Assembly (NCBI RefSeq): GCF_035654295.1
Contig: NZ_DASRXF010000016.1
Coordinates: 10,663-74,662, forward strand
From: Noviherbaspirillum sp.
GTDB lineage: Bacteria; Pseudomonadota; Gammaproteobacteria; Burkholderiales; Burkholderiaceae_D
DNA: 64,000 nt
Reading direction: 5' to 3'
Positions within the stretch are counted from its first letter, which is position 1, and every line of letters begins with the position of its first letter. Shown in pieces: positions 18,626-22,570 of this stretch. The translations under genes and the position numbers were made by a program. Below the pieces are notes generated by a model, which saw only the letters and a list, made by a program, of their open reading frames with translations, had not been told where the DNA came from and ran no database searches.

Positions 18626-20779
18626 ATGGCGGCGATCGCGAAGATCTTCCTCGATGGCGCCGATCAATCTTCGTCTTTCGACCTGGTGTCGCTGCACGCG
18701 CACGAACAGCTTGGCCGCTGCTATGCGCTGGACGCCGTGCTGCTGGCCGACAAGGCAAGCCTTTCTCCGGCGGAGGTGCTCGGGAAAAGCCTTGGCGTCG
18801 CGCTGACCCTGCAGGATGGCGTCAAGCGCTGCTTCAACGGCATCGTGTTCCGGATGAGCCGCGGCCCGCGCCAGGGGCACAGGCATGAATACCGTGTCCA
18901 CCTCCAGCCGGATTTCGCCCTGCTCGGCCTGCGCAGCGATGCCCGGGTGTTTCAGAACAAGACCGTTCTGGAAGTCTTTGAAACGGTCGTGGCGCAGATT
19001 CCTTCGCTCGCCTGGCAGTTCTCCGCAAGCTCACTGCCCCATCTGCCGTGGGAAAACTGCGTCCAGTACCAGGAGACGGACCTGTCCTTCCTCCTGCGCC
19101 TGCTGGAACACGAAGGCATTTATTTTTACTTCGAGCACCTGGAAGGCGGGCAGACCAGGATGAAACTGCTGGACACCGTCGCCGGCGGGGCGCAAAAAAG
19201 CCTGAGCTTCAATCCCAATGCGGCCGCCAGCAAACGGCCCCACGACTATGCAGAAGCATGGAGCCGCACCAGCAAGCTGGTGCCGGGGGTGGCCGAGCTG
19301 TCCGACTTCGACTTCACCAAGCCGATGCAACAGCGTGAAGTGCGCAGCGCGCAACCGGCCGGCCACACGCACGACGCCATGGAGCTGTATTTCTATCCGG
19401 GCGAGTTCGATTCGCGGCAGGAAGGCGCCACCTTCGCCGATCTGCGCATGCAGGCGCTGCACGTCGAGCATGCCAGTTTCGAAGGAAGGACCAGCTCGCC
19501 TGACATCGCCATCGGCAAGACGATCGGCATCCAGCAGCATCCGGCCGACGACCTGAACGGCGATTATCTGGTCGTCTCGACCTCGTACTCGATCCTCAAT
19601 CGCGATCCCGATGCCGGGGGCGGCGGCGGCGCTTCCATCGAGTGTCACTTCACCGCGATCCCGGCGAAGATTCCTTATCGGCCGGAACGCATTACGCCCA
19701 AGAGCATGATCTTCGGTCCGCAGACGGCCTTCGTGGTCGGGCCGGAAAACAACGAGATCCACACCGACGAGCACGGACGCATCCGCGTGCAGTTTCACTG
19801 GGACCGTTACGGCAAGCCGACACAGGACACCTCCTGCTGGATACGCGTCGCCCAGCCCTGGGCCAACCAGGGCTTTGGTTTCTGGGCGCTGCCCAGGGTC
19901 GGGTCCGAAGTCGTGGTGCAATTCCTCGACGGCGATCCCGATCGCCCGCTGGCGGTCGGCAGCGTCTACAACGGCGAAAACCGCATTCCCTACCCCCAGC
20001 CGGCGAACAAGACGCGCAGCGGGGTGCGCACCTTGTCCACGCCTGAGGGCGGTATCAATGATTTCAACGAACTGCGTTTCGAGGACAAGAAGGGCGAAGA
20101 GGAAATCTATCTGCAGGCGCAGAAGGATCTGAACACGCGGGTCAAGGCGGACGCCACCTGTGTGGTCGGCGGCGAAGACAAGCTTTCGGTGGAGAAGGGA
20201 CAGAATATCCGCGTGAGCAAGGGGCGCGAGCTGACCGTGGCCGAAATCCAGGTCACGTCCATCGGCGGCGACCACAAGCTCGCCGTGGCGGGCAACCAGG
20301 CCTGCAAGGTGGACGGCGACCGCACGGCGCAGCTCGGTTCGGACAGCGTACAGGTGCAGGGTGATGCGGTGTTTGGCACCGGCGGCGACCTGGGCATTAC
20401 CACCGGACAGAACTATGCGCTCAACGCGCAGCTCGGCATTGCGATGAGCGCGCAGACGACGGTGGACTTGAAGTCGGGCATGACTATCGCGATGGACGCT
20501 TCCGCCGGCCTCTCCCTGCGCTGCGGCGGTTCTTTCATCAGCCTCACGCCGGCGGGCATCTTCATCCAGGCGCCGATGCTCATGCTCAATTCCGGCGGTT
20601 CGGCATTGAATGCGAAGGCGGCCCGCCCCGCAAAAGCGAAACCGGTGCAAAAGCCGGGCGAGGCAGGCGCGATTTCGGTCGCAGACAGTCCGCCCGTGGT
20701 GCCCGCAACCCGTCAGCCGCGCGCCGGATCGCTGGCGGATGCGGCACGCACCGGCTCTCCATTTGCCGAGGCGGGCTGA
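18626..20779 (+). CDS. vgrG: VgrG (TssI) spike protein
   Basis: ATG 18626 is preceded by GAAAGGAGAG. gp27/gp5-like sequence includes RVFQNKTVLEVFE and IRVQFHWDR...SCWIRVAQPWAN..FGFW.LPRVGSEVVV.FLDGDPDRPL. About 60 aa of Ala/Pro/Lys-rich C-terminal tail. Confidence 0.95.
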   Translation: MAAIAKIFLDGADQSSSFDLVSLHAHEQLGRCYALDAVLLADKASLSPAEVLGKSLGVALTLQDGVKRCFNGIVFRMSRGPRQGHRHEYRVHLQPDFALLGLRSDARVFQNKTVLEVFETVVAQIPSLAWQFSASSLPHLPWENCVQYQETDLSFLLRLLEHEGIYFYFEHLEGGQTRMKLLDTVAGGAQKSLSFNPNAAASKRPHDYAEAWSRTSKLVPGVAELSDFDFTKPMQQREVRSAQPAGHTHDAMELYFYPGEFDSRQEGATFADLRMQALHVEHASFEGRTSSPDIAIGKTIGIQQHPADDLNGDYLVVSTSYSILNRDPDAGGGGGASIECHFTAIPAKIPYRPERITPKSMIFGPQTAFVVGPENNEIHTDEHGRIRVQFHWDRYGKPTQDTSCWIRVAQPWANQGFGFWALPRVGSEVVVQFLDGDPDRPLAVGSVYNGENRIPYPQPANKTRSGVRTLSTPEGGINDFNELRFEDKKGEEEIYLQAQKDLNTRVKADATCVVGGEDKLSVEKGQNIRVSKGRELTVAEIQVTSIGGDHKLAVAGNQACKVDGDRTAQLGSDSVQVQGDAVFGTGGDLGITTGQNYALNAQLGIAMSAQTTVDLKSGMTIAMDASAGLSLRCGGSFISLTPAGIFIQAPMLMLNSGGSALNAKAARPAKAKPVQKPGEAGAISVADSPPVVPATRQPRAGSLADAARTGSPFAEAG

Positions 20780-20780
20780 C

Positions 20781-21332
20781 ATGGGCCAGTTGCGCGACCT
20801 GATCATCGCCCAACCGCGTGCGAACCTGTACGCGGTCGCGGACGCGGCAAGCCTGCCCGGCCTGCTCGAGCCGATGTATGCACCGGGACGGCGGTCCTTC
20901 GCCTGCCTGCTGCCGGGAGAAATCAGCGCGGACGTGGCCCACGTCGCTCCCTACCTGATTGCTTTGCACGGAGCGCCGGCGCTGGTGGACTGGCTTGACG
21001 CGAGGCTCGCGCTGCCCTGGGGATATGTGGTGCAAGCGGACGCGGGCCTGCTTGCCTTGCAACTGCACCTGCGCCGTTTCACCGAAACGCGCGGGCCGAA
21101 TGGCGAAGAATGGCTCTTTCGTTTCTGGGACCCGCGGGTCCTGCGCACCATGCCCGACATCCTCACGCCGGCGCAGACCGCCGAATTCATGGCTGGCATT
21201 GCGCGCATCTATCTGCCCGGCCCCGGCGCAGGAAGCGCGTTGCACGCGGATTGGGATGCGGGATCGCAGCGGCTGCGCTTTGCCGGAAGGGCCGCAGCGT
21301 CCGAACAAGGAGTGGCCCATGCTTATGTTTGA
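20781..21332 (+). CDS. DUF4123-type T6SS effector adaptor/chaperone (Tap/Tec family), short form (183 aa)
   Basis: ATG 20781 lies 2 nt after the vgrG stop. LYAVADAASLPGLL...VAPYLIAL...WGYVVQAD...LQLHLRRF...LFRFWDPRVLR matches the DUF4123 pattern. Confidence 0.8.
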   Translation: MGQLRDLIIAQPRANLYAVADAASLPGLLEPMYAPGRRSFACLLPGEISADVAHVAPYLIALHGAPALVDWLDARLALPWGYVVQADAGLLALQLHLRRFTETRGPNGEEWLFRFWDPRVLRTMPDILTPAQTAEFMAGIARIYLPGPGAGSALHADWDAGSQRLRFAGRAAASEQGVAHAYV

Positions 21333-21678
21333 CCGGGAACAGCTGCGCAGCTTTGCGCAAGCCGCCTTTGTACGACGCATGCGCGATGTGCTGCATGCGC
21401 TGTCCCCCGCCGCTGAGCTGGCCGAAGGCGATCTGGACAAGGAAATCGCCGCGCAGCTGAAGACGGCGCGCGGCTACGGTTTCGAGAGTGAGCGGGATTG
21501 CGCCCGGTGGGTCTTGTGCGCATGGTGCATGGGCCGTGACTTCGACAGAAAGATCGCGTCATTGGCCGAACAGCTCAAGCGCGAGGACGTCACCCCCGCC
21601 TACAAGGCGCTTGTCCTGGAGCTGATGCTCCGTTCCGTCTTCTCGGCGCTGGCCGGACGCTCGAGGGCGGTGCCATGA
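21319..21678 (+). CDS. Hypothetical protein (119 aa), possibly the detached C-terminal part of the DUF4123 adaptor
   Basis: ATG 21319 overlaps the preceding ORF by 14 nt in another frame. ATGA overlap with the next ORF. No domain recognised. Confidence 0.5.
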   Translation: MLMFDREQLRSFAQAAFVRRMRDVLHALSPAAELAEGDLDKEIAAQLKTARGYGFESERDCARWVLCAWCMGRDFDRKIASLAEQLKREDVTPAYKALVLELMLRSVFSALAGRSRAVP

Positions 21679-22268
21679 GCTGGGGCAGCCCCTTCCGCAA
21701 CGCCTGGGACGCGGCGTCCTCCGGCGCAAGAGCAGCGGCGCGCGAAGCGGTGATCAGTCCGGAAAAAGCCGCCGGCCTGCTGGCCGATACGCTGGCCCAC
21801 ACGCTGCAGCGGACGCAGTACGCGGCCCGCGACGTGCGGCGTCTGCAGCAGGCCACGCAGGCCGCGGAAACACCCGACGCGGCAGCGGCACAGGCTGCGG
21901 CGCTGCGCAGCGCGATGGACGACATCCGGGCCGGCAAGGTCCCGCCGGAACGCGCCGAGAAGCATGTGCAACAGGCGCTTCGCCCGGCCACCGGCAAAGT
22001 GGCCGTGCCGGACGGCGAGCGGCATAGTGACGGCCGGCACGCGGCCCAGCGTTTCGTGGAGCTGCGCAAACGCCTGCTCGAGCAATTGGATGAAGCGCAA
22101 GAGCGCTGGACTGTCAACAACGTTCCAGCCGACGCAGCCTTTGTGCAAGCCCTGGACCGGGCCTTTGCCCTGGTCGACGAGCTGTTCCTCGAAGGCAAAC
22201 GGGCGGACGACCCCGCCGCACCGCTGCCTTCCGGCCCCGGCCCCGGCCCCGCGAAGGAGGACGCCTGA
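21675..22268 (+). CDS. Hypothetical Ala-rich helical protein (197 aa) immediately upstream of PAAR
   Basis: Translationally coupled on both sides (ATGA at 21675, TGATG at 22266-22270). No TM helix, signal peptide or catalytic motif recognised. Confidence 0.55.
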   Translation: MSWGSPFRNAWDAASSGARAAAREAVISPEKAAGLLADTLAHTLQRTQYAARDVRRLQQATQAAETPDAAAAQAAALRSAMDDIRAGKVPPERAEKHVQQALRPATGKVAVPDGERHSDGRHAAQRFVELRKRLLEQLDEAQERWTVNNVPADAAFVQALDRAFALVDELFLEGKRADDPAAPLPSGPGPGPAKEDA

Positions 22269-22570
22269 TGCCCTTCGCAGCGCGCCTGACCGATATGCAT
22301 GTCTGTCCGATGGCAACGCCGGGTACGCCGCCGGTGCCGCACGTGGGCGGACCTATCATCGCACCCGGCTCGCCCACGGTACTCATCCAGGGACTGCCCG
22401 CTGCGCGCCTCACAGACCAGGCCATGTGCGCGGCGCCGCTGCCCGATGTGATTGTTTCGGGCTCGTTCACGGTTCTCATCAACGGCCTGCCCGCCGCGCG
22501 CGTGGGCGACCGTACCGCGCATGGCGGCGTCATCCTTGCCGGCGCGCCTACTGTGCAAATCGGGGGATGA
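22268..22570 (+). CDS. PAAR-domain spike-tip protein (100 aa, stand-alone)
   Basis: The literal PAAR motif occurs twice (GLPAARLTD, GLPAARVGD), together with conserved His/Cys residues. Confidence 0.92.
   Translation: MPFAARLTDMHVCPMATPGTPPVPHVGGPIIAPGSPTVLIQGLPAARLTDQAMCAAPLPDVIVSGSFTVLINGLPAARVGDRTAHGGVILAGAPTVQIGG

Follow-up and report, generated by a model that had tools for sequence, protein, structure and literature searches.

A five-gene module in a type VI secretion cluster

We analysed a stretch of 64,000 nucleotides (nt) from the genome of Noviherbaspirillum sp. (contig NZ_DASRXF010000016.1), below called the window. It contains a complete type VI secretion system (T6SS) cluster: the end of tssM, ppkA with MORN repeats, two hcp genes, tssBC, tssA, tagJ/impE, tssEFG, clpV, a module of five genes, tagH and pppA. 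The subject of this study is the module, located on the plus strand between clpV and tagH/pppA. It consists of vgrG (18626..20779), a DUF4123 gene (20781..21332), two small genes that we call p119 (21319..21678) and p197 (21675..22268), and a PAAR gene (22268..22570). VgrG (717 amino acids, aa) is a spike protein without an enzymatic extension. The DUF4123 protein (183 aa) has the N-lobe of a Tap adaptor only. The protein p119 (119 aa) is very probably the detached helical C-lobe of the adaptor, that is, a co-adaptor, and p197 (197 aa), encoded directly after it, is a candidate client cargo of the split adaptor. The PAAR protein (100 aa) is a bare spike tip.

An earlier note, made from the letters of the window alone, had described five tightly coupled open reading frames (ORFs) here, and all of them were found at these positions on the plus strand. 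Its account of the junctions needs one correction. The DUF4123 and p119 genes overlap by 14 nt, p119 and p197 overlap as ATGA, and p197 and PAAR as TGATG, all as described; the gap after the vgrG stop codon is 1 nt and not 2 nt. The note also took VgrG to lack an enzymatic C-terminal domain, PAAR to be a bare 100-aa domain, and the two small proteins to have no transmembrane segments, and we agree on all three counts. VgrG has only the standard spike domains (TIGR03361 at 3e-161, Phage_GPD, Phage_base_V, Gp5_C/Gp5_trimer_C) and a non-enzymatic tail. PAAR matches PF05488 at 3e-27 and is 100 aa long; its Tox-PAAR-like score is sub-threshold only. The Kyte-Doolittle hydropathy of p119 and p197 does not exceed 1.3 over windows of 19 residues.

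Sequences resembling Shine-Dalgarno sites are located ahead of vgrG, p119 and PAAR. The GC pattern of all five genes is that of coding sequence in this genome, with a GC content of 0.75-0.81 at third codon positions and the lowest content at second positions.

Homologues of the module were found in Noviherbaspirillum and its relatives at 36-63% identity. The order of the five genes is kept in each related locus recovered (L007, L008, L009-L012, L016 and L017), and thus the five genes are real and under selection. Throughout this clade the order is vgrG, DUF4123, a gene of about 120 aa, a gene of about 200 aa, PAAR, tagH, pppA. Several metagenome assemblies hold identical copies of the module. 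It is also carried by a cultured strain, Noviherbaspirillum malthae CC-AFH3 (L012), and therefore the ideas set out below are testable. A scan of genome contigs for DUF4123 neighbourhoods yielded only five loci, too few for statistics.

A Tap adaptor probably encoded by two genes

The DUF4123 protein matches PF13503 over residues 16-134 (E 7e-24) and has a weak match to the NCBIfam family Tla1. In published Tap adaptors an alpha/beta N-lobe of about 177 residues binds a C-terminal motif of VgrG, and a helical C-lobe contacts the effector (PMC11582642). Tap3 is built in this way, with an alpha/beta N-domain and a C-terminal helical bundle contacting the effector (PMC12909789). The DUF4123 protein of the window has the length of an N-lobe only.

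No match to p119 was found in Pfam or NCBIfam, and comparison of the p119 and DUF4123 profiles with the sequences of the PDB gave nothing meaningful. The AF2 (AlphaFold2) model of p119, built with 12 homologues, has five helices and a pLDDT of 85. In a Foldseek search of the PDB the sole credible match to this model was 9r8g_B (probability 1.00, query TM-score 0.62, root mean square deviation (rmsd) 3.0 A, 104 columns); all remaining matches had rmsd above 10 A. The entry 9r8g is the Pseudomonas putida DUF4123 adaptor Tap3 in complex with the effector Tke5, and the matching chain B is Tap3.

A word-indexed profile search for fused forms of p119 retrieved stand-alone proteins (about 120 aa) and a single distant member, P0045, and nothing else. 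Fusions surfaced only when metagenome contig DNA was scanned with a broad p119 alignment, which gave 28 distant loci. In one of these, L023, a single ORF of 299 aa has a Pfam DUF4123 match at residues 29-147 and a p119-like region at residues 183-298. In another, L042, a DUF4123 part and a p119-like region again share one ORF. By BLASTP, the DUF4123 protein of the window aligns to residues 29-159 of the L023 protein (35% identity, E 3e-19) and p119 aligns to residues 189-298 (37% identity, E 3e-17), so both window proteins are collinear on the natural fusion. These two Rosetta-stone fusions identify p119 as an adaptor C-lobe that is encoded separately. It is thus highly probable that p119 is the C-lobe of a Tap (DUF4123) adaptor, and neither an effector nor an immunity protein.

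The same 14-nt overlap of the DUF4123 and p119 genes (21319-21332 in the window) occurs in five clade members, the window, L007, L008, L009 and L012, with the conserved geometry CAT-GNN-NNN-[GA]TT-T[GA][AG]. Every p119 gene starts at an ATG of its own behind its own Shine-Dalgarno sequence, and in L013 and L016 the DUF4123 and p119-like genes are separate and do not overlap. Thus the split is real. One could suppose instead that it reflects a sequencing frameshift, or that programmed +1 frameshifting yields a full-length Tap. The conserved geometry of the overlap, with its ending [GA]TT-T[GA][AG], would agree with programmed frameshifting, and one may speculate that a +1 slip onto TTT produces a protein of about 298 aa, which would match the L023 fusion in size. 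However, the genes are split in every independent clade assembly and in the isolate genome of N. malthae, and no stimulatory element was seen at the junction. The separate starts of the p119 genes, and the non-overlapping genes of L013 and L016, also speak against frameshifting of either kind, which we consider very improbable.

An apparent fusion in L017 was rejected: the upstream reading of 138 aa is an over-extended frame, and the true start is MLMF.

The N-terminal tag of p197 and its longer relatives

In the distant loci, the product of the gene right after the p119-like gene nearly always starts with the pattern M-x-W-G-x-x-F-x-x-A-W-x-x-A (20 of 26 cases by regular expression, and 2 more by eye). 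The protein p197 has this tag at residues 1-28 (MSWGSPFRNAWDAASSGARAAAREAVIS, 21675..21758, plus strand), where it was seen by hhalign, BLASTP and a motif scan. We considered all ORFs of at least 100 aa in the six frames of every fetched locus and of the window, 1150 in total. The pattern is found within the first 12 residues of 16 of these ORFs, and each of the 16, p197 among them, is the next gene after a p119-like one.

Alignment of the p197 family with 12 long cargo proteins by hhalign matched residues 1-28 to residues 1-28 (probability 89%, E 2e-6) and revealed no hidden homology beyond them. In a BLASTP comparison with the cargo of L013 (Pyrinomonadaceae), p197 has 8 identities and 15 positives in 15 positions at the extreme N-terminus (E 4e-5).

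The distant tagged proteins are 289-443 aa long, and p197 ends where these longer relatives begin their toxin domains. Several of them have weak matches centred on the nucleophile elbow of alpha/beta-hydrolases (DUF900, Lipase_3, DUF676, Hydrolase_4), and one, the L013 cargo, has a glycine zipper. The genes that follow them encode lipoprotein-like proteins of about 180 aa in L022, L032, L039 and L043, a tandem array of lipoprotein-like proteins of 263-267 aa in L027, and a DcrB/Eag-like protein in L013. Judged by these matches, the long tagged genes and their followers are ordinary effector-immunity or effector-chaperone sets. Since the tagged genes occur in such sets, the tag looks like a loading handle for clients of the C-lobe family, p197 being one of them. 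We consider it probable that p197 is a client of p119.

The tag is present in several metagenomes and, judged by the titles of the records L012 and L013, in at least two phyla. It is not among the T6SS secretion domains described in the literature that we searched.

The two small genes could also be assigned in the opposite way, with p119 as a small toxin and p197 as its immunity protein, as in the Agrobacterium operon vgrG1-tap1-tde1-tdi1-paar. We take the gene order of A. tumefaciens C58 to be the same as here, VgrG, DUF4123, X, Y, PAAR. However, the C-terminal half of fused Tap adaptors is a homologue of p119, p119 matches the structure of Tap3, and the N-terminus of p197 is shared with proteins that have toxin-like domains and themselves precede genes of immunity-like lipoproteins. 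Moreover, none of the five proteins has a Pfam match to the hallmarks of Tde1 and Tdi1, a Toxin_43-type nuclease and a GAD-like/DUF1851 immunity protein. This assignment is hardly credible.

Adaptor and cargo genes in distant loci

The adaptor and cargo genes are arranged in different ways outside the clade. In some distant loci (L026, 2622-3492 and 5794-7673; L022, 4201-7544), vgrG, the short DUF4123 gene and PAAR stand together, and the C-lobe gene, a tagged cargo and an immunity gene are found 2-3 kb away or have no DUF4123 gene nearby. This suggests that cassettes of C-lobe and cargo may be exchangeable independently of the N-lobe.

L013, from a metagenome-assembled genome of Pyrinomonadaceae, has an extra ORF of 155 aa (6586-7053) between the DUF4123 and C-lobe genes, with an H…C pattern and no Pfam match. 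Its DcrB/Eag-like gene (149 aa, 8574-9023) follows the glycine-zipper cargo. The locus therefore combines accessory proteins of the Tap and Eag types.

The most distant homologue of p119, P0045, is encoded in L018 (60-2109) beside a divergently oriented gene of the Tox-PAAR-like (DUF4150) family. It is followed by a tagged protein of at least 352 aa with an elbow-like sequence AHSRG; the contig of 2.1 kb has no DUF4123 gene.

In L014 (Caulobacter sp. Root655, 5851-9357) and L015 (Sphingomonas faeni, 5788-9528) a PAAR gene is followed by a gene for a protein of 1168 aa or 1246 aa, respectively. In the L014 protein an N-terminal DUF4123 domain passes directly into an Rhs protein, whose C-terminus has a weak match, below threshold, to a GH-E nuclease. 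The L015 protein has a DUF4123 match at the same position. Both would be adaptor-effector fusions.

Two conserved ends of p197

No match to p197 was found in Pfam, in NCBIfam or among PDB sequences, and the matches from Foldseek were all generic helical bundles with E above 0.5. An exhaustive search of 1.84 billion representative proteins with a hidden Markov model retrieved 17 proteins of the p197 family, nearly all full-length and about 200-230 aa long; neither distant nor fused relatives were among the results. In the AF2 model (pLDDT 69) p197 is all-helical and has a disordered tail, where the pLDDT of residues 181-197 falls below 50.

Conservation among 18 aligned family members is limited to residues 1-56 and a C-terminal motif. 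The middle part is helical, indel-rich, and variable in sequence and length. The motif F-L-x-x-K-x-x-x-x-P-x-x-P-L (FLEGKRADDPAAPLP, 22185..22229, plus strand) is a candidate linear motif in the predicted disordered tail. Its positions F171, K175, P180 and P183 do not vary, and L172 and L184 reach at least 85% conservation. A connector that binds at either end would account for two such conserved ends better than a folded toxin would.

The 18 family members share no conserved set of His, Cys, Ser, Asp or Glu residues that would point to catalysis. There is no immunity gene adjacent to p197 either: PAAR and then tagH are the next genes in all clade loci. Thus, as neither a toxin fold nor a conserved catalytic set nor an immunity gene was found, a new toxin is not demonstrated here. 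Given that a toxin domain and an immunity gene are lacking and only the two ends are conserved, p197 is most likely a non-enzymatic cargo, an assignment that we make tentatively; a classical toxin is less likely.

One possibility is that p197 is a genuine small effector active in the target cell, which needs no immunity protein since it acts against eukaryotes or by binding. Its client position and N-terminal tag are those of the toxin-bearing relatives. The C-terminal motif is conserved together with the charged residues H42, D53 and K175, and thus the C-terminal part of the protein is under selection. Published RIX effectors acting against eukaryotes do not have immunity genes (PMC10435454). 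However, p197 has no toxin fold or family match, and conserved ends joined by a variable spacer would be unusual for a folded toxin domain. In addition, the gene is not polymorphic, being fixed and syntenic in a core cluster. An effector of this kind is a close rival of the non-enzymatic cargo, if a somewhat less likely one.

The earlier note had offered two suggestions for the small proteins. As regards a small new effector, the client position and the tag of p197 agree with it, and a toxin nature is not shown, for want of a fold, a catalytic set and an immunity gene. As regards two co-adaptors, this holds for p119, by its structural match to Tap3 and its collinearity with the fused L023 protein; p197 stands in the client position and has the loading tag.

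The stretch AAREA of p197 was considered as a prePAAR motif (AARxxDxxxH) and rejected, because its residues are spaced differently and p197 lacks transmembrane segments.

The spike and a proposed loading chain

VgrG ends with a candidate docking site for the DUF4123 N-lobe, the tail motif SLADAARTGSPFAEAG (20729..20776, plus strand). The window clade shares the conserved pattern L-x-x-AAR-x-G-x-PF-[AC]-E with two distant loci, L013 and L026, where, as in the window, a short DUF4123 gene follows vgrG. Tap N-lobes are known to bind C-terminal motifs of VgrG (PMC11582642), and we infer that the tail is the binding site of the N-lobe here as well. The VgrG tails that bind Tap proteins are described as a helix-turn-helix motif with a conserved pair of cysteines (Colautti et al., PMC11582642). 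Two cysteines are present in the tails of L013 and L026 (PFCExC); VgrG proteins of the window clade end at PFAEAG and do not have them.

PAAR is encoded directly after the p197 homologue in seven of the seven independent clade loci. This leads to another possible role for p119 and p197, that of chaperones which are not secreted and which stabilise PAAR and pass it to VgrG, like the Tvp/DUF2169 complexes. Translation of PAAR is coupled to that of p197, and throughout the clade p197 stands before PAAR. There is precedent for accessory complexes that assemble the VgrG-PAAR spike (PMC13373197): in Serratia marcescens, small accessory genes located, as here, between vgrG and a PAAR-type gene are needed for a secretion-competent spike. 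A further parallel is TecT, which binds a PAAR extension, as summarised in PMC11582642. However, the Tvp system consists of the DUF2169 protein TvpA and a DUF4150 PAAR-like protein, and Pfam detects neither domain among the five proteins of the window. The bare PAAR of 100 aa offers no extension to grasp. The distant pairs of C-lobe and tag travel with toxin and immunity genes while PAAR is encoded elsewhere (L022, L026), and the toxin-bearing relatives are left unexplained. We thus regard PAAR chaperones as improbable.

We propose that the five genes encode one spike-loading chain, and estimate the probability of this scheme as a whole at roughly 60%; in it we infer all physical contacts and the export of p197 on the spike. 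The VgrG trimer would end in the short tail motif (…AARTGSPFAEAG), and the 183-aa DUF4123 N-lobe would bind this tail. The separate C-lobe polypeptide p119 would pair with the N-lobe and hold the client, gripping p197 by its first 28 or so residues (MxWGxxFxxAW, a predicted helix). PAAR would cap the spike, and p197 would ride out on it.

The role of p197 in this chain may take two forms. In the first, p197 would be a tether, with the C-terminal motif FLxxKxxDPxAPLP binding a further partner; toxin-less secreted adaptors with a secretion domain are known among RIX proteins (PMC10435454). In the second, it would be a permanent harmless "dummy load" that stands in for an effector where T6SS assembly requires one to be loaded. 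Such a requirement exists in A. tumefaciens (PMC6945064). More speculatively, all these observations may be read together. The tag would be an undescribed loading signal, present in at least two phyla and read by a detachable Tap C-lobe, and the p197 of the clade would have shed its toxin and become fixed as a non-toxic load or tether, which either licenses assembly of the spike or recruits effectors encoded elsewhere via DDPxAPLP. This joint reading is attractive and, on balance, unlikely to hold in every part.

Several points weigh against the proposed chain. The assignment of p119 to the C-lobe of Tap3, and not to another part of it, depends on the fusion in L023 and on the all-helical nature of p119. 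Several distant loci have no DUF4123 gene beside the C-lobe gene, and thus the pairing of the lobes is not universal in cis. The similarity of the tags is short (28 residues, with the hhalign probability of 89%), and since adjacent genes are inherited together, part of the association between tag and C-lobe could reflect shared ancestry and not recognition. Finally, a small helical effector of the binding type, for instance one directed against eukaryotes, would equally lack catalytic residues and an immunity gene, and the sequence does not separate it from a tether.

Comparison with described systems

The closest described arrangement is that of TecT, co-TecT and TseT in P. aeruginosa (Burkinshaw 2018, as summarised in PMC11582642), where a DUF4123 chaperone and a co-chaperone are split and co-TecT binds the effector. 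A split Tap is thus known in principle, TecT/co-TecT being described in the same terms by Colautti et al. (PMC11582642). According to this summary, the DUF4123 protein is again the conserved lobe only and a small neighbouring protein acts as the effector-binding C-lobe. The client gene comes right after the co-adaptor, and a PAAR gene belongs to the same operon. The likeness between p119 and co-TecT (PA3906) appears to be functional, and is drawn from the description given there. However, TecT is described as docking on a C-terminal extension of PAAR, whereas in the window the DUF4123 gene follows vgrG, VgrG has the conserved tail motif and PAAR is bare. TseT is described as a DNase whose immunity protein is TsiT; for p197 there is neither a toxin domain nor an immunity gene. 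The module had been thought to depart from the textbook arrangement. The departure is smaller than claimed, as the order of adaptor, co-adaptor and client is that of TecT, co-TecT and TseT; the toxin domain and the immunity gene are truly missing.

The full-length adaptors of the pairs Tap3-Tke5 (PDB 9r8g), Tap6-Ptx2 and Tap14-RhsP2 are bilobed: the N-lobe, of alpha/beta structure, serves VgrG, and the helical C-lobe contacts the effector. The window is similar in that p119 superposes on Tap3 and the two genes together correspond to one fused Tap (L023). However, the known adaptors are single polypeptides of about 290 aa that recognise MIX domains or an Rhs cage, whereas in the window recognition would apparently rely on the 28-residue N-terminal tag and the client has only 197 aa.

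Like the MIX, RIX, PIX and WHIX domains, the tag is a conserved N-terminal element of proteins with differing C-terminal toxins, and some toxin-less RIX members are tethers ("secreted adaptors"). However, the tag MxWGxxFxxAW is much shorter than those domains, is unrelated in sequence to them as they are described, and goes with a Tap C-lobe gene of its own. The gene after p197 is PAAR, whereas an effector-immunity pair comes after the RIX adaptors.

Two points are of particular interest, the short N-terminal loading tag and a conserved client without toxin or immunity. The module would represent a second family of split Tap adaptors, compared with co-TecT by description, and one with natural fused and unfused forms. 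The coexistence of these forms is direct evolutionary evidence that the adaptor lobes are separable modules. The tag, which is specific in our sample (16 of 16 among the 1150 ORFs), could serve as a handle in searches for uncharted lipase-like and membrane-active T6SS effectors of soil and other environmental bacteria. A tagged client without toxin or immunity, fixed in the operon of a core T6SS, offers a natural test of the effector-loading checkpoint, namely of whether the T6SS still requires a loaded spike for assembly if its load does no harm.

Flanking genes and other features of the window

The upstream flank of the module is clpV (15038..17734, plus strand), which encodes a protein of 898 aa with AAA, AAA_2 and ClpB_D2-small matches. 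Downstream lie tagH (22587..24161, plus strand), an FHA protein gene with matches to TIGR03354 (1.5e-79), FHA and T6SS_FHA_C, and after it pppA (24167-24946) with a PP2C_2 match.

An orphan ORF of 263 aa with a proline-rich N-terminus (17741-18532, plus strand) is located between clpV and vgrG. It has no match in Pfam, NCBIfam or PDB sequences, and is not shown to be a partner of vgrG. The same slot holds an unrelated ORF of 255 aa in L009 (Noviherbaspirillum sp.) and is empty in L007. It is thus variable, and might hold strain-specific cargo.

A region of low GC content (5200-7000, about 0.585 compared to about 0.65) lies between the divergently placed hcp genes (4709-5191, plus strand; 6999-7463, minus strand). 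Its two ORFs (5822-6337 and 6386-6922) are orphans without Pfam matches, and may be a horizontally acquired, Hcp-linked pair of effector and immunity genes. The second ORF was considered as M15 peptidase-like because of an H..D..H pattern; this is not supported by Pfam.

A T6SS-associated Ser/Thr kinase gene (2037-4613, plus strand) occupies the position of ppkA and encodes C-terminal MORN repeats (PF02493, E 4e-25). Just downstream of the T6SS cluster, a gene of 72 aa (27404-27622, plus strand) encodes a ParD-like antitoxin (PF11903 in the identical locus L001) and adjoins a gene for a predicted membrane protein of 161-170 aa.

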